Part shown: one piece after another, positions 44,697 through 55,266 of the stretch
How the letters are laid out: each line of letters begins with the position of its first letter
Numbering within the stretch: the stretch's first letter is position 1
DNA from: Escherichia phage E26
DNA length: 64,000 bases
Sequence record: MN655998.1
Reading direction: 5' to 3' (one strand)
Notes under the pieces: generated by a model
The model's input: only the letters and a program-made list of their open reading frames with translations
Database searches by the model: none
Told to the model about the DNA's origin: nothing
Position numbers and translations under genes: made by a program

Positions 44697-47600
44697 ATGG
44701 CAGATTTTTCTCAACATTTCAAGGCCACGTTTGGCTTTGACGCTGGTAATGAAAAGGTCGTCAATGTAGCATTGGCTGATAAGAATGTCAACACCGATGC
44801 GGTCAACGTTGAATTTTTCAATTACCATAATGGTATTACTCAGTATGACACAACTCGCGGTTATGATCAATACGGAACTACAATCTATCAAAACCGTCCG
44901 TATTATGCAAAAGAAGATATCACAAAACCGGCAGGTGATTTTGACCCGACTAAATGGCAAGCACTGCGCACGGACCCACGTTGGGATTATATTGCAGCAA
45001 CTTCCGGTGATACTCCTTTAAAGTCTGGTGATTATATCGCAGCAGATGGTCAATTTGCAAACTTGACTTTCTCTATGCCAACTAAACCAGCAGAGGGAGA
45101 CACTATAACAGTAAAAGATATCGGTGGCAAGTGTGGTGTTAACGAATTATCGTTCTTGAGTTCAGGACATGAGTTTTACCATAACGGTAATGTGTATAAC
45201 CGAAAATGGTATTGCACTACCCCGTATGCAATGAACTATTTCATCTTTGTTCGTAATCGTTGGCATGTTTATCAGACAGGAACAGAGCCACGCGGTGTGT
45301 ACGCACAGCCAGCGATTGATGCTATTCAAATGCAGAATGGTGACCAGGTATTTCGTCGTAGTTCGTTGGGTAATATTACCTTAGTGCTTCCTAAGTTTGC
45401 CAACAATGGCGACATGATCCAGACTACAGACCTTGACGGATTAACCGCAACCAACCACGTTACGGTTAAAGTTCATGAGCACGCAGAAGAACAATCAATT
45501 GGCACGTCCGGTCTAAAAGAGATTATCGGTAAGCGTAGCGGTCATGGTGTATTCATCTTTGACAAGACGGAAAACTTATGGCGTTTGTGGGATGGTGATC
45601 AGTCTGTTCGTCTTAAACCGATCATCGATGACACTCGCTTGCAACCTAATAGCTATGTTGCTGTATTTGGTGATCGTGATGTTACTCTGACGCTGCCGAC
45701 CAATGTCGAGCCGGGTGATCGTATTCAAGTTTCTATGCAGTATATGCACGGAAACCAGAATTGCCGTATTATCACCGCCACAGAGGATACAAAAATCCTT
45801 ATGTCGAAAAACATGGTTCAGTTTCCGAAGCGTAGCGAGTACCCATTCAACGGGACCGACACATGGAAGGAAGTGTCTGAATTGTCGTTCAATGCGGCTA
45901 GTGATTATGTACCTTATCTGGAGTTCTCTTATTCAGAAGGTGATGATGGTAAGAAACATTGGCTGGTAGCACACTCTCATCCGATCGTCGAACGAGTAGA
46001 CCCTACTCGTAAAGAGCGTGTTGGTGTAATTGCACTGGCTACCCAAACTGAAACGAATAAAAACCATGAAGAGAATCCTAGCGACGAAGTTGCAGTAACA
46101 CCAAAAATGCTGGCTAATAAAACCGCCAACGAAACTCGACGCGGTATTGCTCGCATTGCGACTCAAGCGGAAACGCATCAAGATACTGGTTCTAACTTCC
46201 TGGATGATGTTATCGTTACGCCTAAAAAGTTAAATGACTGTGTTGCTACCGAAGCCCGTCGTGGTGTGATGGAAATTGCAACTCAACATGAAACCAATGA
46301 AGGTTTAGACGATACCCGCGCTATTACTCCTAAGAAATTAGAAGAACGTCGCGCTTCCGAAGATCTCGCTGGCATTGCTGAAATTGTTCAGGCTGGCGGT
46401 AGTGCTGCCGCTCGACGTGGCGAAGCTGGTACAGGGATCTATAACATCAACGACCATGCTAAAATTGTTACGCCACAAAACATCAACGAAGTCAAGGCGA
46501 CCGAAACTTCCCGTGGTGTTGGCTATCTGGCAACTGACGCGGAAGTGCAAGGGGCTACAGAATCAACCCCGCAAGATGCTTTACTAATCACGACTCGCAC
46601 GCTAACGAAACGTACTGCTACCGAATCGCGCACTGGTATCGCTGAAATTGCAACTCAGGAAGAAACAAACTTAGGTCAAAGTGATAACCATATCATCACG
46701 CCTAAAAAGCTGCATGGCAAAAAAGCCACCGAAGGTAAAGAAGGTATTATCCGAGTTGGTACTCAAGCCGAAACCGTGGCTGGTACACTGGCTAATGTAG
46801 CAATTTCTCCGAAGAACTTCAAATATGTTGTTCAGACAGAGGATACATGGAAAGCAACAGAAGCGCGTCGTGGATTCTTGAAAGTTGCTACTCAGGAAAA
46901 CTGTTTTGTTGGTGATAATCTGCAAGGTTCTACTCAAGAACTAGGAAACTACCAGCATGACGGAATTGCTGTTACCCCTAAAGGATTAAACTACGCACTT
47001 GCTAATTTCTTACCTAAGATGGCAACCGCTCAGAATAGTTTGAAATTGGGTAACGTAGAGGCCGCTAAATGGGCGCGTAGAGACATTGACCAGACCATAG
47101 AGAGCAATTACACGTTTAATAAAAAAGTTAACGTGAAGGGCGATTTAGAGTGCTTAAAATCAGGTTCCTTTGAAACTCTGTATGTGACTAAGAACTCTAC
47201 TGATGATCCGAGTAATGGTCATCTGGTGTTGGGTGAGCGTGGAGTTGACGGTCACACCGGAATTACTCTGCATGGCACAACCGCATCGGAAGGCATGAAA
47301 AACTCCTGGTCTATTATCGTTGGTGGTACTGGAACGGCGCAAGCAGTTAATAGTGGCGCTATCGCTTTCGGTCAAATCAATGATGGTGGAGTCGTCGAGC
47401 ATTACGCCTTTGCTATGGAACACACTGGCGACGCGACAGCATATAGAAACTTAATGGCAGGTCGTAACCTGTATGCAAAACAAGGCGGTTTATACATTGT
47501 TGACCTGTCTAATCCGGCAATGACTCGTTCCTCAGATGGTATGCTGAATATCGGTCACGGTGGAAGTGTTAACATCAAGGCAGGTTATCAGAATCTGACT

Positions 47601-48131
47601 ACAGAGATCGCCGGACAGAAATATCAGATCGTACACACAGGAAACGCTGACGAAGTTCTTAACCGTCAGTTTGTTAAGAATGCTGGCGATACAATGGTCG
47701 GTAAGCTGACTATGGATAATGCGCCTATTGTTTCTGTTAAGCATGAAGCTAGCGCGGCAACCGCCCCAGCAATCGGTAACATCGGTTTCTGGAATATGCG
47801 AGTTACTACCCAGAACATCAAAGAAACTTATCCAGAGAAGAAAAACGGTACTCTGATGCAATGGGGTACTGACGCGGACGGGCTTACCCAGCTTTGGTCC
47901 CCTGATGGTACTCATAAACATTATATCCGTTCCGGTACTGGTGGTCAATGGACCGCATGGGGTGAAATTTACACCAAACAGAATAAGCCTACCGCTCAGG
48001 AAATCGGGGCAGTAGTTGCAGAAGGTGGTTTAATGAACTCTATGACGGTTCGTGATTGGATCAAAGTTGGTAATGTTAAAATCATCGCCAATAATCTGAC
48101 TCGTACCGTAGACTTTATCTGGGAAGACTAA
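44697..48131 (+). CDS. 34: long tail fibre proximal subunit gp34
   Basis: 1144 aa; repeated ATQxETxxG blocks; synteny 34-35-36-37. Confidence 0.85.
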   Translation: MADFSQHFKATFGFDAGNEKVVNVALADKNVNTDAVNVEFFNYHNGITQYDTTRGYDQYGTTIYQNRPYYAKEDITKPAGDFDPTKWQALRTDPRWDYIAATSGDTPLKSGDYIAADGQFANLTFSMPTKPAEGDTITVKDIGGKCGVNELSFLSSGHEFYHNGNVYNRKWYCTTPYAMNYFIFVRNRWHVYQTGTEPRGVYAQPAIDAIQMQNGDQVFRRSSLGNITLVLPKFANNGDMIQTTDLDGLTATNHVTVKVHEHAEEQSIGTSGLKEIIGKRSGHGVFIFDKTENLWRLWDGDQSVRLKPIIDDTRLQPNSYVAVFGDRDVTLTLPTNVEPGDRIQVSMQYMHGNQNCRIITATEDTKILMSKNMVQFPKRSEYPFNGTDTWKEVSELSFNAASDYVPYLEFSYSEGDDGKKHWLVAHSHPIVERVDPTRKERVGVIALATQTETNKNHEENPSDEVAVTPKMLANKTANETRRGIARIATQAETHQDTGSNFLDDVIVTPKKLNDCVATEARRGVMEIATQHETNEGLDDTRAITPKKLEERRASEDLAGIAEIVQAGGSAAARRGEAGTGIYNINDHAKIVTPQNINEVKATETSRGVGYLATDAEVQGATESTPQDALLITTRTLTKRTATESRTGIAEIATQEETNLGQSDNHIITPKKLHGKKATEGKEGIIRVGTQAETVAGTLANVAISPKNFKYVVQTEDTWKATEARRGFLKVATQENCFVGDNLQGSTQELGNYQHDGIAVTPKGLNYALANFLPKMATAQNSLKLGNVEAAKWARRDIDQTIESNYTFNKKVNVKGDLECLKSGSFETLYVTKNSTDDPSNGHLVLGERGVDGHTGITLHGTTASEGMKNSWSIIVGGTGTAQAVNSGAIAFGQINDGGVVEHYAFAMEHTGDATAYRNLMAGRNLYAKQGGLYIVDLSNPAMTRSSDGMLNIGHGGSVNIKAGYQNLTTEIAGQKYQIVHTGNADEVLNRQFVKNAGDTMVGKLTMDNAPIVSVKHEASAATAPAIGNIGFWNMRVTTQNIKETYPEKKNGTLMQWGTDADGLTQLWSPDGTHKHYIRSGTGGQWTAWGEIYTKQNKPTAQEIGAVVAEGGLMNSMTVRDWIKVGNVKIIANNLTRTVDFIWED

Positions 48132-48164
48132 TTAAAGGGGGCGAAAGCCCCCTATGGGGTTATT

Positions 48165-49304
48165 ATGACACAAGAGATAGAATTACGCAACACTGGAATT
48201 AGGTTTGCGCATTTCGACGAAGACTCTGCGACATTTACCAGCATTTCAGAAAATAACTCTGTGATGTATAAGCTGGAAGTGCGCGGATCTAATGCGGATT
48301 CTACCAAACCAGCAAGGATTAGATTTAATGGAGTGGAGATCGTTGGCACTGGCTATGAAAATGGCCTAAATTTTAAAGTTCTTACTCCAACTGGACAATT
48401 ACACGAAGAAAAGGTATTCTATGGTCGCGGTGCTGTTTTGGCAATGCGTGATTATCTTTCTTTGCTGAAAGGTGACTATATCATTGCGATGGCAACGCAT
48501 GGAGAATTGTTTGCAGATCCGGTAAGTGATGTTGTATTTTCTAAGCTGGGATCTGTATCATTCCCGAATCACATTTTGTTACAGCAAATGCCTCGTGTAT
48601 CATATGCAGCAATTTATTCTACTAAAATGGGTAAAATTGTGTGCGAAGGGATGCAAGCAACTCACGGGGAAGGACAAGATTCATCTATACAAATTGAGAA
48701 AGTCTATGATACTATAGATGATCTTGCTATAACAGGAACACCACAACGATTTTTAGATTATCCGGTTGAGTATGTTAGCGAAGATGCCGAACATTTCGAG
48801 CTAATACAATGGCCTCACGATGAGATCAGCGCCCCACTTGAGGATTTTAACATAAAGGCAGGTGACAAACTATCAATATCCTTTGAATTGTTCCGTGATA
48901 GTGCCGCAGCCGCAGCCAACGTAACCGCGCGTTTCTATCACAACTACTTCACCGATGGACAATATCAAACTGGTGTTCGATACAATGCCAGCAAAAAAGA
49001 TCAATGGGAAAAGTTTGAAGCAGTCTATACCGTACCGGAAGGTGTCGATAGTGTAGTAACTGGTTGTATCAGATATCCAACCAACTCAAATGAAGGTATT
49101 GTTAAAATTAGAAACATACTAATAACGCCGATCAGTGGAGTCGTCAAAACTACTGGTCCTACTTCATTTGGTGTTAATGGTGTTAGAACAACTCATATTC
49201 AGGATAACGGTGATTTTACTAACCCTGTAATGAGTCTTCTTAAACTGCCTAGAGATAATAAACACATCACATCCAACAACTTTAAAGAGTTCGATGTTGA
49301 TTAA
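48165..49304 (+). CDS. 35: long tail fibre hinge connector gp35
   Basis: 379 aa, synteny. Confidence 0.7.
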   Translation: MTQEIELRNTGIRFAHFDEDSATFTSISENNSVMYKLEVRGSNADSTKPARIRFNGVEIVGTGYENGLNFKVLTPTGQLHEEKVFYGRGAVLAMRDYLSLLKGDYIIAMATHGELFADPVSDVVFSKLGSVSFPNHILLQQMPRVSYAAIYSTKMGKIVCEGMQATHGEGQDSSIQIEKVYDTIDDLAITGTPQRFLDYPVEYVSEDAEHFELIQWPHDEISAPLEDFNIKAGDKLSISFELFRDSAAAAANVTARFYHNYFTDGQYQTGVRYNASKKDQWEKFEAVYTVPEGVDSVVTGCIRYPTNSNEGIVKIRNILITPISGVVKTTGPTSFGVNGVRTTHIQDNGDFTNPVMSLLKLPRDNKHITSNNFKEFDVD

Positions 49305-49315
49305 CATTTTTAACA

Positions 49316-49337
49316 AGCCGATCCATGTGGTCGGCTT
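49316..49337 (+). terminator. intrinsic terminator AGCCGATCC-atg-TGGTCGGCT + T-run
   Basis: Hairpin then TTTATTTTTAT; same hairpin in opposite orientation at 59756..59777. Confidence 0.5.
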
Positions 49338-49465
49338 TATTTTTATACAGTTGGTTAAATTGTAACCAAAACGAAGAAAGATCTTTAGAATAATAGAAAA
49401 TTTGTTTCGGTTAAAAATTAGTCAGTGCCTACGGCACGTCGCGAAGCGATATTTTGTTAACATTC

Positions 49466-49473
49466 TATAAATA
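49466..49473 (+). promoter_or_regulatory. late promoter TATAAATA upstream of gene 36
   Basis: Exact TATAAATA ~34 nt upstream of ATG. Confidence 0.55.
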
Positions 49474-49506
49474 CTCGGAACTATAACTAATTTTTGAGGT
49501 TACTTT

Positions 49507-50997
49507 ATGGCAGATTTGAAATATGGATCTACTGTAGGCGGATCTCCCATTTGGACGCAAGGAAACTTGACGATCCAGCCAGCGGGGGATCAGCTTTTCT
49601 ACAAAGGTCATAAAATCTATACCGCTTTTGATAGACCTTCGGCTACCGATTTTGATGCTGTTAGTGCATCCGAAGGTGGCACATTTCAAAAGCAAGTTCA
49701 TTTCGAGGAAGGTTTAAGCGTAGGTAGCGCATCGGCTGGAGAAACCAAAAAGAATGGTATCTTTAAAGGCCAGAGTGATGCCGCTAATTTTGACGGCGTA
49801 AGCTGGGGTTTGCATTCATGGAAGTCAATCGGCTTTGTTAATGCCCGTGATGGCGTTATTATGGCGTATATTGACACCACAACGGGCGAATTTAAGTCTA
49901 AAGGGACTATCGAAGGGACAACCATTAAAGACACAGGTCAACGCGTCTATAGCCCTGTTAATAAACCAACGAATAATGATTTAGATTTGGTATCTCGTCG
50001 CGGTGATACTCTCACAGGAACATATAATTTAAACACTGTCACTGTTAAACTATCGGTTGATTCGAAATTAATTGCAAGGGAACGTGATTTAATTAATTTT
50101 GATGCGACTAAGATCTATTATGGTAACGTTCTTGATACGTTGGTATTCCGAAGTAAAGATGAGCCTACCATTTTTGTTAATGGCAGAGAAGGTCGTTTTT
50201 ATCACACCAACAATAAACCAACTAAAGCCGATGTTGGGCTAGGCAATGTCACCAATGATGCACAGGTTAAACGTGCTGGTGATATTATGGAAGGTAACTT
50301 GCAAGCGCCTAGAATGTTGGCGACAAACGATCCTGCTGGTCCTAATGAATTGGTTCGTTTGAGCTACTTTGAGAGAAAATCAATGGTAGCAAATCCAACC
50401 ATCATTGGAAACGTTGATTGGAACACTCTTATTAATCGCGGTATCTATCGTGTGGAAAATGCTGGGTCGGGTACTAATAAACCGTCTGATAGTTATTATA
50501 ACGGCGTTTTAATGGTATATCGCCCAGAAGATGCGGTCGGTACTCGTCGAATTGTTCAGGTGTATTATCCTGAATCTATTGACCATCCGATGTGCTGGCG
50601 TTCGTGTTCTAATGAATCATGGACTGCATGGAACTATGTAGATCACCGTAAATTGGCTGATATTCGCTATGTTAACGTCACCGGCGATACCATGACAGGA
50701 CCGTTAACTGTTCCGGCTGCAAACGGTGTTAGAACGGCTAGAGGTGCATATAATGGTGATAACTACTATGCCGGGTTAAATAGTGCTGATGGTACTGCTA
50801 TGATTCACCGCATTAGTGATATTAAAGGGACCGAAAAGCTGGGGATCACCCACGACTCAAAGGTCGTGTTTTTCCGTTCTAGAAACAATACTCAAACCCT
50901 GGACCGCTATCAGCTTTATCATGAAGGTAATAAACCTACTCCGGCTGATGTTGGAGCGGTTCCACTTAATGCGGTGATTGATTTTGGTACTTTCTAA
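49507..50997 (+). CDS. 36: long tail fibre proximal-distal connector gp36 (extended form)
   Basis: N-terminus MADLKYGSTVGGSPIWTQGN resembles T4 gp36 start; 496 aa. Confidence 0.7.
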   Translation: MADLKYGSTVGGSPIWTQGNLTIQPAGDQLFYKGHKIYTAFDRPSATDFDAVSASEGGTFQKQVHFEEGLSVGSASAGETKKNGIFKGQSDAANFDGVSWGLHSWKSIGFVNARDGVIMAYIDTTTGEFKSKGTIEGTTIKDTGQRVYSPVNKPTNNDLDLVSRRGDTLTGTYNLNTVTVKLSVDSKLIARERDLINFDATKIYYGNVLDTLVFRSKDEPTIFVNGREGRFYHTNNKPTKADVGLGNVTNDAQVKRAGDIMEGNLQAPRMLATNDPAGPNELVRLSYFERKSMVANPTIIGNVDWNTLINRGIYRVENAGSGTNKPSDSYYNGVLMVYRPEDAVGTRRIVQVYYPESIDHPMCWRSCSNESWTAWNYVDHRKLADIRYVNVTGDTMTGPLTVPAANGVRTARGAYNGDNYYAGLNSADGTAMIHRISDIKGTEKLGITHDSKVVFFRSRNNTQTLDRYQLYHEGNKPTPADVGAVPLNAVIDFGTF

Positions 50998-51002
50998 TTT
51001 TA

Positions 51003-51027
51003 GCGGGGAGACAATCCCCGCTTTTCT
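51003..51027 (+). terminator. hairpin GCGGGGAG-acaa-TCCCCGC + TTTTCT (partial terminator/attenuator)
   Basis: GC stem between genes 36 and 37. Confidence 0.4.
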
Positions 51028-51067
51028 AAATAATGTTATTCTAATAACCGTTTAAGGATTTTATAAA

Positions 51068-54013
51068 ATGGCAGATTTAAGCAGAATCCAATTTAAACGC
51101 ACTAGCACTAAAGGTCGTCGACCGGATGCTAGTACGATGAATCCGGGGGAATTGGCAATCAACCTTGCGGATCAATATCTTCTTACTAAAAATGATTCCG
51201 GTGCTATTATCAATTTAAGTTGTCCTCCGGTTTATGACCGTGACGTTACAATGGCGGGTAAAGTTAAAGGTAATAATTATATCTTAAGTAAAACCGCTAA
51301 CTATCTGGAAGATCAGACAGCGCGAGATCTTAACTACTTTGGCGCTTTCCGTACCAATGGTCTTGATGGTTTTCTAGAACTAACGCTAAACGTTCCTCAT
51401 CCTACTGGTGTTCAGCATGGTCGAGGATTTACTTTCCAGTATGGACACACTGGATCGCGTGTAGAAACTTATGGCTATAATAAAGAAGGTCAAAAAGCAT
51501 TTAGCTATAAAATGTATCATGAAGGTGATAAACCAACTCCAGGAGAATTGAACGTTTATAGCAAACAAGAAGTAGATAGAATGTTTGTTAAGAACGTTAA
51601 ACTTGCTACATCTCCTAGTGATATCGTTGAAGGCTATTTTAAATTAGCAACTGCAATGATTCCACAAAACGGTCTTAGCGTATTTTTCCGTATTCATGGT
51701 GGTAACGGATATAACGTTACTGCATACGATCAAGTTGATATTGTAGAAATTGTTATTCGCAGTGGAAATGGTCGCCCTAAAGGTGTTAACGTTATTGCAT
51801 ATCGCCGAAATACAAACAAATCATTTGATGTTTTGGCTGTTAATACTTCTGGTGATAACTATGATATCTATGTGAAATATCAGCGTTACACTGATAACGT
51901 TATTGTTGAATTTGGTAAAAGTGTTGGTGTTAATCTGGTAGTTCATGACGTTCCAGACTTTGTTGTTGATCGTCCTGTTGGTGATAATGTTATTGGCGGT
52001 CGCGCGGTAACTCTTTTTAACACCGAAAACAAACGAGGTGTGTTGAGTTTTGACGATAACACACAAAATAGTTATGATATTGTTCACTTGAGTAATGATA
52101 AAGGTACTGGAAGGAAATATATTCGTAAATTCCGTAGTAACTATAATGAAATGATCTGGCATGAGACTGTTCAAGGTTCTACTTATCGACTCGCCACGGG
52201 TAGTACAGATGCTCAGGAGATTCTATCCGTTGAATCTAGTAGCTCTATTGCTGGGACTCATAAAGGTAATATTCTTTCTGGTCGAATGATGTTAGGTGGC
52301 GGTAGTAATGTTATTACCTTGCGGCGTCCTGCTGGTCAATCCAACCATATTGCGTTTCAAGATAATCGGACTGGAGCTATTACCCGTCAAGGGTGGATCG
52401 GTTATGGTAATGCTGATACTAACGTTTTTGAATGGTATAGTGATGTAGGTGGTAGTTCTATTCGTCACCACATCGACGGACAGATCGAACTTGCAACCGG
52501 TAACACAAAACGCGTTTATACTAACGCTCAATTCATCTCAATGAATAGCGACGCCTACCGCATGCTCTACGGTAATTATGGTGCATTCTGGCGTAATGAC
52601 GGCGTTAAAGTTTATCTTCTTTCTACTGCCGAAAATGATACAATGGGCGGATGGAATGCCTATCGTCCATTCATTTATGATTTAACTTCCGGTAACGTTC
52701 AATTAGGCGGTGATGGTAACGAAGAAGCATTAACGTTAGAACGTGCTTCTCGTGCCGCTCGCTTTAGTAATGACGTTTACATTAAGAAAGGGCTTTTGAC
52801 TTTCGACGCTGGTCGCTCTGGATCTCGCGATTATATTCGATTTAATCATTGGGGTGATAGTAATAATGCCCGTGATAACGTTTTGTACATAGAAGATAGT
52901 CAAGGCCGACATTTTAGCACAGAACGTGCGATGGGTACTGGTGCTCTTAAAGCATACTTCTTAGGCGATCTTGAAGTCGGTGGTAAGTTTACTTGGGGTA
53001 AAAATACAGCTACATCTAGCTTTAATATTCGTGCATGGGGTAATGATTCCCGTAAACAAGTATTAGAATGCGCGGATGAAAGTGGTTGGCATTGGTATAC
53101 CCAACGTCCAGGCGGTCCGGGAACAAATGAGATTATATTCAATGTTAACGGGAAAGTTCAATCTCAGGGTTTTGAGACTTCTGGTAATATTAAGATAACT
53201 GGACCAGACATTGAGTTTCGTCGCACTGGCAATAAGCACATCTGGTTTAGAGATCCTGACGGCTTAGAATTGGGTTTGATTTATTGTGACGACAACGGCG
53301 TTATTCGTTTCCGTGGTCAAAAACAAACTCAAGATTGGATATTTGGCAATAAGACGATCCAATTAGGAACTAGTGCTACTGTTAGTGGATCTGGTAACGG
53401 TTTGATTCGCGGACAAGTTCAAGGTGGTGCTTGGACACAATGGAGAGATCGTGCTGCTGGCTTATTGGTTGATTGTCAGAATACCGAAAACTCTGCACAT
53501 AACGTGTGGAAAGCGACACATTGGGGCAAATTCCACATTGCAGCTATGGGTATTCACGTTTCAGGTGGAAATATAGCAAACGCATTGGCGCGTCTACATG
53601 TTAATGATGCAACTTTTGACCATAGTGCGAGCGGTGACTTCCAGGCAAGCCGTAATGGTAGCTTTAACGATGTTTATATTCGTTCTGATGCTCGCCTTAA
53701 AATCAATAAGGAAGAGTATAAAGAGAATGCCACAGATAAAGTTAATCGCTTGACGGTATACACCTATGACAAGGTTAAATCTTTAACCGACCGTACTGTC
53801 ATTGCTCATGAAGTTGGTATTATTGCACAGGATCTTGAAAAAGAATTGCCGGAAGCAGTAACAACTTCTAAGGTCGGCGATCCTGATAAGCCAGAAGAGA
53901 TCTTAACAATTTCTAACTCTGCTGTCAACGCTCTTTTAATTAAGGCGTTTCAGGAAATGAGCGAAGAATTGAAAGCCGTTAAAGCTGAACTAGCGGAACT
54001 TAAAAAGAATTAA
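51068..54013 (+). CDS. 37: long tail fibre distal subunit gp37 with C-terminal intramolecular-chaperone-like domain
   Basis: MADLSRIQFKRTSTKGRRPDA...GELAINL resembles T4 gp37 start; C-terminal SDARLK (Ser-x4-Lys) box as in S74-type autocleaving chaperone domains. Confidence 0.8.
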   Translation: MADLSRIQFKRTSTKGRRPDASTMNPGELAINLADQYLLTKNDSGAIINLSCPPVYDRDVTMAGKVKGNNYILSKTANYLEDQTARDLNYFGAFRTNGLDGFLELTLNVPHPTGVQHGRGFTFQYGHTGSRVETYGYNKEGQKAFSYKMYHEGDKPTPGELNVYSKQEVDRMFVKNVKLATSPSDIVEGYFKLATAMIPQNGLSVFFRIHGGNGYNVTAYDQVDIVEIVIRSGNGRPKGVNVIAYRRNTNKSFDVLAVNTSGDNYDIYVKYQRYTDNVIVEFGKSVGVNLVVHDVPDFVVDRPVGDNVIGGRAVTLFNTENKRGVLSFDDNTQNSYDIVHLSNDKGTGRKYIRKFRSNYNEMIWHETVQGSTYRLATGSTDAQEILSVESSSSIAGTHKGNILSGRMMLGGGSNVITLRRPAGQSNHIAFQDNRTGAITRQGWIGYGNADTNVFEWYSDVGGSSIRHHIDGQIELATGNTKRVYTNAQFISMNSDAYRMLYGNYGAFWRNDGVKVYLLSTAENDTMGGWNAYRPFIYDLTSGNVQLGGDGNEEALTLERASRAARFSNDVYIKKGLLTFDAGRSGSRDYIRFNHWGDSNNARDNVLYIEDSQGRHFSTERAMGTGALKAYFLGDLEVGGKFTWGKNTATSSFNIRAWGNDSRKQVLECADESGWHWYTQRPGGPGTNEIIFNVNGKVQSQGFETSGNIKITGPDIEFRRTGNKHIWFRDPDGLELGLIYCDDNGVIRFRGQKQTQDWIFGNKTIQLGTSATVSGSGNGLIRGQVQGGAWTQWRDRAAGLLVDCQNTENSAHNVWKATHWGKFHIAAMGIHVSGGNIANALARLHVNDATFDHSASGDFQASRNGSFNDVYIRSDARLKINKEEYKENATDKVNRLTVYTYDKVKSLTDRTVIAHEVGIIAQDLEKELPEAVTTSKVGDPDKPEEILTISNSAVNALLIKAFQEMSEELKAVKAELAELKKN

Positions 54014-54053
54014 GGAAACTCCCAGGGAAGGGAACTACTAAGGAGAAACGGCT

Positions 54054-54293
54054 ATGGTCTATAATATCGTCATTGGTGCTTTGTCTAATTTCGGAATGAA
54101 ATTATTGTCAAAGTTAATTAGTGAAAAGATGCTCACTAAAATTTTCTTCTATTGCGCTCGTCGTCTTGCGGCTTATACCAATACGCCAATTGATGACCGT
54201 TTCGTGGAAGAACTTTATAAGGAGTTTAATAAAGATCAGTCAGAAGATAGTAACGAGCAAGATAAACCTAGTGATAGTCAACTACCTAAATAA
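54054..54293 (+). CDS. hypothetical protein (79 aa) at the position of gene 38
   Basis: Hydrophobic N-terminus, acidic C-terminus; no similarity to gp38 adhesin recognised. Confidence 0.4.
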   Translation: MVYNIVIGALSNFGMKLLSKLISEKMLTKIFFYCARRLAAYTNTPIDDRFVEELYKEFNKDQSEDSNEQDKPSDSQLPK

Positions 54294-54326
54294 GAGTACA
54301 CTGTCATAGTTATCTTAGGGCATTAT

Positions 54327-54983
54327 ATGCAAGTTTCTGAAAAAGGGAAAGACTTTGCTATCTCAAATGTCCTGCGCGCTATTTTCACAACTAAAAGCAC
54401 GGAGTTGCTCGTACTTCGTGTTTTTGCTGCCGTCGTGTTGTCCATATTGGCATTTGTCGTTTATAGTAAAAACGAGTTATTTGCGCTTTATAAAGAGACT
54501 CGTTATGAGACTTATGCTCACATTCTCCAGGTAGAGAAAGACCGCAATTTTGATAATGCAGCACAGGAGCAGTTACAGATAGTTCATGTGTCGGCTGATG
54601 CCGATTTTTCTGCTGTTTTTAGTTTTCGTCCGAAAAACCTAAACTATTTTGTTGATTTGGTGGCATATGAAGGAAAGCTACCGCACACAATCGATGAAAA
54701 AAATTTAGGCGGATTCCCTATCAATAAAACGAGTGAAGAATATCGTAGGCATCTTTTAGGTAAATCATATTTTACCGATAAAGATTTCCAGTATATTCCA
54801 TCAAGAGAAAAGAAATTAGAGAATATCGATATAGGTTTCATGTATTCTTGTCCTATATTCAATCTCGATAATGTCTATTCTGGTAGTATCGCCATTTCAT
54901 GGAAGAATAAACCGGATATTGACATTGAGAATTTAGATACTCTTTGCAATCAATCTGCCAGAATCCTCGGAAGGATTAGATAA
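54327..54983 (+). CDS. t: holin T
   Basis: 218 aa; single N-terminal TM; QLQIVHVSADADFSAVFSFRPKNLNYFVDLVAYEGKLP and C-terminal ARILGRIR as in T4 T. Confidence 0.8.
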   Translation: MQVSEKGKDFAISNVLRAIFTTKSTELLVLRVFAAVVLSILAFVVYSKNELFALYKETRYETYAHILQVEKDRNFDNAAQEQLQIVHVSADADFSAVFSFRPKNLNYFVDLVAYEGKLPHTIDEKNLGGFPINKTSEEYRRHLLGKSYFTDKDFQYIPSREKKLENIDIGFMYSCPIFNLDNVYSGSIAISWKNKPDIDIENLDTLCNQSARILGRIR

Positions 54984-54990
54984 CTTAAAG

Positions 54991-55018
54991 GGGAAGCCTT
55001 TCGGCCTCCCCTTCTTTT
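54991..55018. terminator. hairpin GGGGAAGCC-tttc-GGCCTCCCC + T-run
   Basis: Between convergent t and minus-strand gene. Confidence 0.45.
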
Positions 55019-55266
55019 TATTGACGCATAGACGCGCCTGAATCACATTTTGACGCTGTATGATGAAAACATGTAGCGTACCAGTCATCGGCTTGTTTGT
55101 CTTCGTCAGAAAACGCGTAATTTCGTTGTATGCCGTTTTCTACTTTGACCAGTGCAATAGCTGTTTCTGGAAGATCAATCAATCGGACAAAATCACCATC
55201 TTCCCACTCTACACGAGCAATATCATAGCCCATCTCAAAGTATACAATCGCTTGTTCTAATTTCAT
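55018..55266 (-). CDS. DUF2829-like (Tad2-family-like) small protein
   Basis: 82 aa; N-terminal EQAIxx...GYDIARVEW and C-terminal QADDW resemble the DUF2829 pattern; weak. Confidence 0.3.
   Translation of the reverse strand: MKLEQAIVYFEMGYDIARVEWEDGDFVRLIDLPETAIALVKVENGIQRNYAFSDEDKQADDWYATCFHHTASKCDSGASMRQ

Follow-up and report, generated by a model that had tools for sequence, protein, structure and literature searches.

The gp37 protein encoded in the stretch of DNA analyzed here (64 kb, referred to as the window) very probably forms the standard T2/S16-type long-tail-fiber tip of a Krischvirus, in which gene 38 has been relocated. Three elements of this arrangement are already published for RB49-like phages (PMC3157838, PMC9569957, PMC12032242), namely the displaced gene 38, the self-cleaving gp37 chaperone, and a host range set by gp38; current understanding is unchanged by the organization of gp37 and gene 38 in the window. 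In annotation and host-range prediction, a T-even-type gp37 with an S74 domain should be read as the sign of a fiber capped by gp38 and not of a self-sufficient one, and the adhesin gene of a Krischvirus is to be sought far from the fiber locus. When "no gene 38 after gene 37" is taken to mean "no adhesin," receptor specificity is given to the wrong protein.

Genomic Setting

The window covers the right-hand ~64 kb of the genome of a Krischvirus (Straboviridae) resembling RB49, Phi1, ECD7, and vB_EcoM_011D4 (011D4), roughly 40% of a ~164-kb genome, and over 25 kb its identity to Krischvirus genomes is 96–97%. The window and these four phages share the gene order 34-35-36-37-small ORF-t, with 87–97% nucleotide identity across the gene 37-dc5-t locus; gene 37 itself is 90–97% identical to Krischvirus gene 37. 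Differences from the four phages are confined to mosaic substitutions in the mid and distal parts of the gp37 shaft, and no record in the phage collection was identical. The features of the locus, all on the + strand, are as follows.

49466..49473, +, T4-type late promoter motif TATAAATA upstream of gene 36 (motif scan)
51068..54013, +, gene 37, long tail fiber distal subunit (ORF, 981 aa, stop codon included)
51068..53683, +, predicted mature gp37, aa 1–872, ending ...NGSFNDVYIR (cut placed by alignment)
53684..54010, +, C-terminal intramolecular chaperone (Peptidase_S74 / CIMCD), aa 873–981, 109 aa
53684–53863, +, Pfam core of the gp37 chaperone (PF13884), aa 873–932
53684–53686, +, codon for Ser873, predicted nucleophile and P1' residue of the scissile Arg872-Ser873 bond (alignment)
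53699–53701, +, codon for Lys878, predicted general base of the Ser-Lys dyad (alignment)
54054..54293, +, 79-aa ORF in the usual gene 38 slot, "Dc5" in RB49 (RB49 annotation)
54327..54983, +, gene t, T-type holin, closing the 37-(38)-t block (Phage_holin_T, E 4.5e-61; PHROG 860)

A C-Terminal Intramolecular Chaperone

The long tail fiber distal subunit (gp37 matches PHROG 1699, "long tail fiber protein distal subunit," at E 2.6e-192) carries an S74 domain at its extreme C-terminus (aa 873–981 of 981). Peptidase_S74 (PF13884) matches aa 873–932 with an E value of 1.5e-11 and a score of 44.9 bits, above the curated cut-off of 22, and is present in all 27 database homologs. The segment YIRSDARLKINKEE begins at aa 870 (nt 53675) and contains the predicted dyad; an alignment of 28 homologs, reaching down to 39% identity, shows no variation at S873, D874, R876, L877, and K878. 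In T5, Arg1250 of a neighboring subunit is the "folding sensor" and Asp1239 forms the oxyanion hole; with regard to residues of this kind, R862 is not conserved in the alignment, and N867 and D868 are nearly invariant. Among eight Krischvirus gp37 proteins, the chaperone domain is 97–100% identical. A bare Ser-x4-Lys pattern is uninformative in this protein (two occurrences, with 3.4 expected from shuffled sequence); the longer motif SDxRxK is found once, against an expectation of 0.014.

In an AF2 monomer model the chaperone region has a pLDDT of about 82–93 over most of its length, and the predicted fold is mixed alpha/beta followed by a long C-terminal helix. The best PDB fold matches of this model in a Foldseek search were 7DC3 (E 4.9e-5, TM 0.69), 3GW6, and 3GUD, the only matches with E<0.1. 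An alignment profile of the domain matches gp37 of Salmonella phage S16 (6F45_A; E 4.7e-10) and MyRF ICA (7DC3); in 6F45, a crystal entry of gp37 with gp38, the matching segment is the chaperone part of S16 gp37. NCBIfam returned no match for gp37. The Pfam match, the invariant Ser/Lys dyad, and the predicted fold support the assignment of the C-terminal ~110 residues as an S74-type intramolecular chaperone. A first-pass annotation of this DNA had proposed such a domain, with a Ser-x4-Lys dyad signature; both proposals are borne out, the dyad lying within SDxRxK. The start coordinate given there, 53690, falls 6 nt inside the domain.

The domain shares several properties with the Peptidase_S74 (MEROPS/Pfam) domains of K1F endosialidase (3GW6), the GA-1 appendage (3GUD), T5 pb1 (4UW8), and MyRF ICA (7DC3): the Pfam family, the spacing of Ser and Lys, a predicted alpha/beta fold that ends in a long helix, and a location at the extreme C-terminus of a trimeric fiber. 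The processed proteins of K1F and T5 act themselves as the receptor-binding or enzymatic tip, whereas the end of gp37 in the window is proposed to be a dock for a separate adhesin. T4 gp37 occupies the same fiber position and has a homologous N-terminus and shaft modules; unlike T4 gp37, gp37 in the window gave no match in Pfam to the gp37_trimer and gp37_C needle domains (PF20744 and PF12604), both of which were detected in a Suspvirus fiber used as a positive control. S74 processing has not been reported for T4 gp37, and the gp38 of T4 serves as a chaperone, not an adhesin.

Predicted Cleavage and gp38 Docking

Cleavage of gp37 between Arg872 and Ser873 is predicted from the alignment and by analogy with processed homologs, and would leave 109 residues, about 12 kDa, beyond the cut. 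The motif NDVYIR^SDARLK is identical in the eight Krischvirus proteins and aligns with DLNVS^SDRRIKK of S16 gp37. The dyad of T5 pb1 (Ser1264/Lys1269) has the same five-residue spacing as Ser873/Lys878, Ser1264 being the counterpart of Ser873 (PMC4690869), and autoproteolytic release has been shown for homologs in T5, K1F, and S16.

In S16, autocleavage of the chaperone lays bare the docking surface for gp38, and in the fPS phages the cleavage site DVYIR^SDGRLKI is described as a gp38 docking strand (PMC7917993). The DVYIR^SD of the window agrees with the published fPS strand, and the last strand of mature gp37, DVYIR, is presumed on this basis to be the docking tip for gp38. When 222 C-terminal residues of gp37 were compared with the PDB using phmmer, the alignment with S16 did not extend upstream of the cleavage site; the case for docking homology to S16 rests on the DVYIR motif. 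S16 and T2-type fibers, in which a monomeric polyglycine gp38 adhesin caps the gp37 trimer, share with the window a ~110-residue C-terminal gp37 chaperone and an x^SDxRxK site; they differ in the sequence upstream of the cut, unalignable save for the last strand, and in the position of gene 38, which in Krischvirus is not adjacent to gene 37.

In the assembly pathway that we propose, three gp37 chains would fold into the distal fiber aided by their own C-terminal S74 chaperone (aa 873–981); once the correct trimer had formed, Ser873, activated by Lys878, would cut the Arg872-Ser873 bond, setting free the 109-residue chaperone trimer. The new C-terminus (...NDVYIR) would then present a small triangular platform on which one glycine-rich gp38 adhesin could dock, so that gp38, not gp37, would touch the receptor, which in relatives is OmpA, Tsx, or O-antigen.

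Location of Gene 38

The gp38 adhesin is recognized here by two domains, GP38 (PF05268) and Gp38_N (PF21721). A tblastn search with RB49 gp38 found no homolog anywhere in the 64-kb window (best E of 8), and the 79-aa ORF that follows gene 37 matches neither GP38 nor Gp38_N nor any other family in the local copy of Pfam, indicating that it is unrelated to gp38. Gene order in the window is 37-dc5-t instead of the canonical 37-38-t, a known Krischvirus deviation; in Tequatrovirus slur04, the gene for an S74-bearing gp37 stands directly before those for gp38 and t. The 37-38-t order is typical of the T2/S16-type system and not definitive of how that system works.

RB49 gene 38 lies at 45367–46143, about 106 kb from gene 37, and has been described in the literature as "displaced," a small ORF having taken its position. 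All 25 of the closest gp37 relatives encode a full gp38, in each case away from the position directly after gene 37, and that of the close relative ECD7 has full GP38 and Gp38_N domains. In RB49 and ECD7 the gene lies among early genes near rI/tk, with a product of ~258 aa; RB49 gp38 has three Trp residues toward its N-terminus (W7, W20, and W64). Gene 38 appears to have moved to the early-gene region in this phage group, with the slot between genes 37 and t being filled by the unrelated small gene dc5. Judging from these relatives, gene 38 of the phage studied here is almost certainly elsewhere in its genome, outside the window, because of this move to about 106 kb from gene 37. The first-pass annotation was right that the 79-aa product (phrog_402) is not gp38; its statement that gene 38 is absent holds for the locus and for the window as a whole and is not supported for the phage. 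In T2/S16-type fibers, a gp37 with an S74 domain normally goes together with a gp38 adhesin; the domain is no substitute for gp38.

The Receptor-Binding Tip

The phage might instead dispense with gp38, the processed gp37 tip binding the receptor itself as does the L-shaped fiber of T5, whose S74-processed pb1 binds its receptor directly. The first-pass annotation had drawn this conclusion, which would accommodate the lack of gp38 in the window, the unrelated ORF in the gene 38 slot, and the variation of the distal gp37 shaft among relatives. It is highly improbable: gp38 is encoded far from gene 37 in every close relative, the strand at the cleavage site is one described as a gp38 dock, and RB49 gp37, with its self-cleaving chaperone domain, is then capped by gp38 (Efimov 2022), as T2/S16-type fibers are. 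Host-range mutations of RB49 map to gp38 (E230K/Y231S; Efimov 2022), and receptor choice in Krischvirus follows the type of gp38. The lack of a separate tip adhesin, true of the window, is contradicted in every sequenced relative. It is even less probable that the S74-like domain is an uncleaved relic acting only as a permanent trimerization module. In its favor, the cleavage of gp37 in the window is a prediction; against it, Ser and Lys are retained throughout the 28 homologs, the homologous S16 and T5 domains are cleaved, T2 gp37 is reported to be proteolytically processed (Drexler 1986), and a retained domain would obstruct the gp38 dock.

A shared role, with gp38 capping the fiber and a lateral site (for O-antigen, for example) on the gp37 shaft at about aa 700–860, is unlikely, though the least so of the three. 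Residues 701–872 are 53–100% identical among the eight Krischvirus proteins (53–73% among most relatives; 100% identical to 011D4), compared with the near-uniform chaperone, and Efimov (2022) finds it counter-intuitive that the small gp38 alone should recognize several O-antigens and OmpA. No co-variation of gp37 distal type with gp38 type was seen among eight phages, an observation that speaks neither for nor against docking. Since aa 701–872 vary and do not track gp38 type, gp37 may possibly contribute to specificity; set against this, the distal differences take the form of substitutions dispersed over a conserved framework, with no hypervariable loops, and the published RB49 host-range mutants altered gp38 only.

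The dc5 Gene and Its Neighbors

The product of dc5 belongs to phrog_402 (E 5e-20), where its function is unassigned, and its precomputed family is PF26925; NCBIfam gave no match. For the 79-aa protein, AF2 predicts three helices with low confidence (pLDDT 60). A transmembrane holin was considered as a candidate identity and rejected: the maximum Kyte-Doolittle 19-mer score is 1.3, compared with 2.9 for holin T, and because this value is borderline the product is not clearly transmembrane.

The TATAAATA motif is the nearest late promoter upstream of genes 37, dc5, and t; only five matches to the late promoter motif occur in the window, none of them between gene 36 and t, and scans of the locus for sigma-70 promoters and terminators gave nothing above shuffled expectation. 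In Krischvirus, dc5 appears to be transcribed late together with gene 37 and the holin gene t, as judged from this promoter arrangement.

In other phages, homologs of dc5 adjoin holin or endolysin genes; in the Ounavirinae they are found between the distal tail-fiber gene and a gene annotated as a holin, and in Vibrio phages close behind the endolysin gene. We tentatively raise the possibility, as a minority view, that dc5 is not filler and encodes a small, so far undescribed factor in lysis timing, for example an antiholin or a partner of the holin, or with lower probability a factor for fiber assembly.

Tail-Fiber Locus

The long tail-fiber genes are encoded on one strand, ending with the holin gene t.

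44697–54983, +, tail-fiber block gp34-gp35-gp36-gp37-79-aa ORF-holin T
within 44697–54983, +, gp34, 1144 aa
within 44697–54983, +, gp35, 379 aa
49507–50997, +, gp36, 496 aa
within 44697–54983, +, gp37, 981 aa
54054–54293, +, 79-aa ORF, named Dc5 in the RB49 annotation (phrog_402; PF26925 in precomputed tables)

The stretch from gene 37 to t is 87–97% identical to Krischvirus genomes (ECD7, Sf20, Phi1, RB49, vB_EcoM_011D4, and others), and a further 25 kb upstream is 96–97% identical to 011D4, ELT4, and PHB13; by alignment, the window corresponds to approximately positions 100–164 kb of the Phi1 genome. At 496 aa, gp36 is roughly double the length given for T4-type gp36 (~220 aa), and over its first ~77 residues it matches distal-subunit (gp37-type) PHROG families at their N-termini. 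A copy of Gp34_trimer (PF21446, E = 8.7e-25) lies inside gp37 (aa 469–537; window 52472–52678). It matches C-terminal structures of T4 gp34 (4UXE and 5NXF), gives a weak match to the Mu-type fiber 5YVQ, and represents module sharing between proximal and distal fiber subunits. Only five TATAAATA late-promoter motifs occur in the window (1–64000), among them motifs immediately preceding gene 34 and gene 36. Because a motif scan found no T4-type late promoter between gene 36 and t, genes 36, 37, dc5, and t probably form a single late transcription unit.

The gp37 Chaperone and Its Predicted Cleavage Site

The first-pass annotation placed an S74-type domain at the C-terminus of gp37, and our analysis confirms both its location and its identity. 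Residue 870 begins the sequence YIRSDARLKINKEE, in which Ser873 and Lys878 form the S-x4-K pair; 109 residues follow the Arg872-Ser873 bond. The bare S-x4-K pattern is uninformative in gp37 (two found versus 3.4 expected from shuffled sequences); SDxRxK is found once versus 0.014 expected. Pfam Peptidase_S74 matches aa 873–932 (E = 1.5e-11, twice the gathering score), and V869, R872, S873, D874, R876, L877, and K878 are invariant when gp37 is aligned with 27 database homologs (lowest identity, 39%). A PDB search with the profile of this alignment recovered S16 gp37 (6F45_A, E = 4.7e-10) and the MyRF ICA domain (7DC3). An S74 fold is also predicted: in an AF2 model of aa 760–981, pLDDT is ~82–93 over most of the chaperone part, and no PDB entries other than 7DC3, 3GW6 (the endosialidase K1F chaperone), and 3GUD (GA-1) match its fold convincingly. 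These three are the S74 structures, and the domain call is therefore right.

In the fPS Tequatroviruses the equivalent gp37 site is DVYIR^SDGRLKI (PMC7917993). Strand and predicted cut in the window's gp37, NDVYIR^SDARLKI, match that site and are unchanged in all eight Krischvirus gp37 proteins compared. In T5 pb1 the Ser departs together with the chaperone (PMC4690869).

Gene 38 and Host Range

The first-pass annotation also held that the gene after 37 does not encode a gp38 adhesin/chaperone, and this is borne out: the 79-aa ORF has no GP38 or Gp38_N match. Its further proposal, that the phage lacks gene 38, is not supported. A tblastn search with RB49 gp38 found no homolog in the whole 64-kb window; the same query found full-length gp38 (81–100% identity) in all 25 records that best match the 37-to-t region, and in none of these does it occupy the position following gene 37. 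In the RB49 annotation, gene 38 is remote (45367–46143), in an early-gene region near rI and tk, ~106 kb from gene 37, and encodes a typical glycine-rich adhesin; ECD7 gp38 has both Pfam gp38 domains. Published work already describes RB49 g38 as displaced, a small ORF having taken its place. This very genome presumably carries g38 as well. The canonical layout is seen in Tequatrovirus slur04, where gp37 with S74 (aa 1175–1232) is followed by gp38 (GP38 and Gp38_N) and then t. The S74 domain and gp38 are partners, not the alternatives that had been assumed.

A receptor-binding role for the gp37 tip itself is not supported and conflicts with published data on this phage group: RB49 host-range mutants carry gp38 E230K/Y231S (Efimov et al.), and a 2025 study assigned Krischvirus receptors by gp38 type. 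Efimov et al. also describe RB49 gp37 as having a self-cleaving chaperone domain and as receiving a gp38 cap afterward. There is a small chance that the distal gp37 shaft adds to specificity. Among eight Krischvirus phages, aa 701–872 range from 53% to 100% identity (100% to 011D4); the differences are scattered over a conserved framework and do not track the two gp38 types, and published genetics favor gp38. In the reading centered on gp38, gp37 would trimerize under the guidance of its own C-terminal chaperone, Lys878 would activate Ser873 for a cut at Arg872-Ser873, and the DVYIR platform laid bare would dock one gp38, encoded outside the window, for receptor binding.

Conservation steps abruptly at the predicted gp37 cleavage site (window 53169–54010; aa 701–981), with 53–100% identity over the 170 residues before it and 97–100% in the chaperone among the eight proteins; this suggests that the chaperone is a conserved recombination anchor for fiber mosaicism.

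Dc5

The dc5 gene is kept in all Krischvirus genomes examined. Homologs in Ounavirinae (32–47% identity) are flanked by a tail-fiber gene and a "holin" that has a hydrophobic N-terminal segment and coiled-coil-like family matches; those in Vibrio phages lie downstream of a GH108 or M15 endolysin region. The predicted structure of Dc5 has three helices, at low confidence, and its hydrophobicity is only borderline. A role in lysis would be a fair guess, and Dc5 may be a small lysis-associated protein that has yet to be described. Its homologs adjoin lysis genes in unrelated phages.

Other Features

ARAGORN found no tRNA genes in the window (1–64000). Two minus-strand genes beyond t carry recognizable domains.

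55018–55266, −, 82-aa ORF convergent with holin t, Tad2-like (Thoeris anti-defense 2) domain PF11195
57262–58062, −, 266-aa protein, LprI (lysozyme inhibitor) domain PF07007 (E = 3.5e-5)

The PF11195 match (E = 3.4e-6) scores 27.9 bits, above its cut-off of 25, and the ORF may be an anti-defense gene. The 266-aa protein has an N-terminal signal-peptide-like segment and, after the LprI domain, a lysine/glutamate-rich linker. A 25.7-kb contig labeled E. coli encodes a 303-aa chimeric ORF (P0019) that joins Gp38_N and the first half of GP38, in one reading frame, to the gp37 tip with its S74 chaperone; recombination between g38 and g37 or an assembly artifact could account for it.
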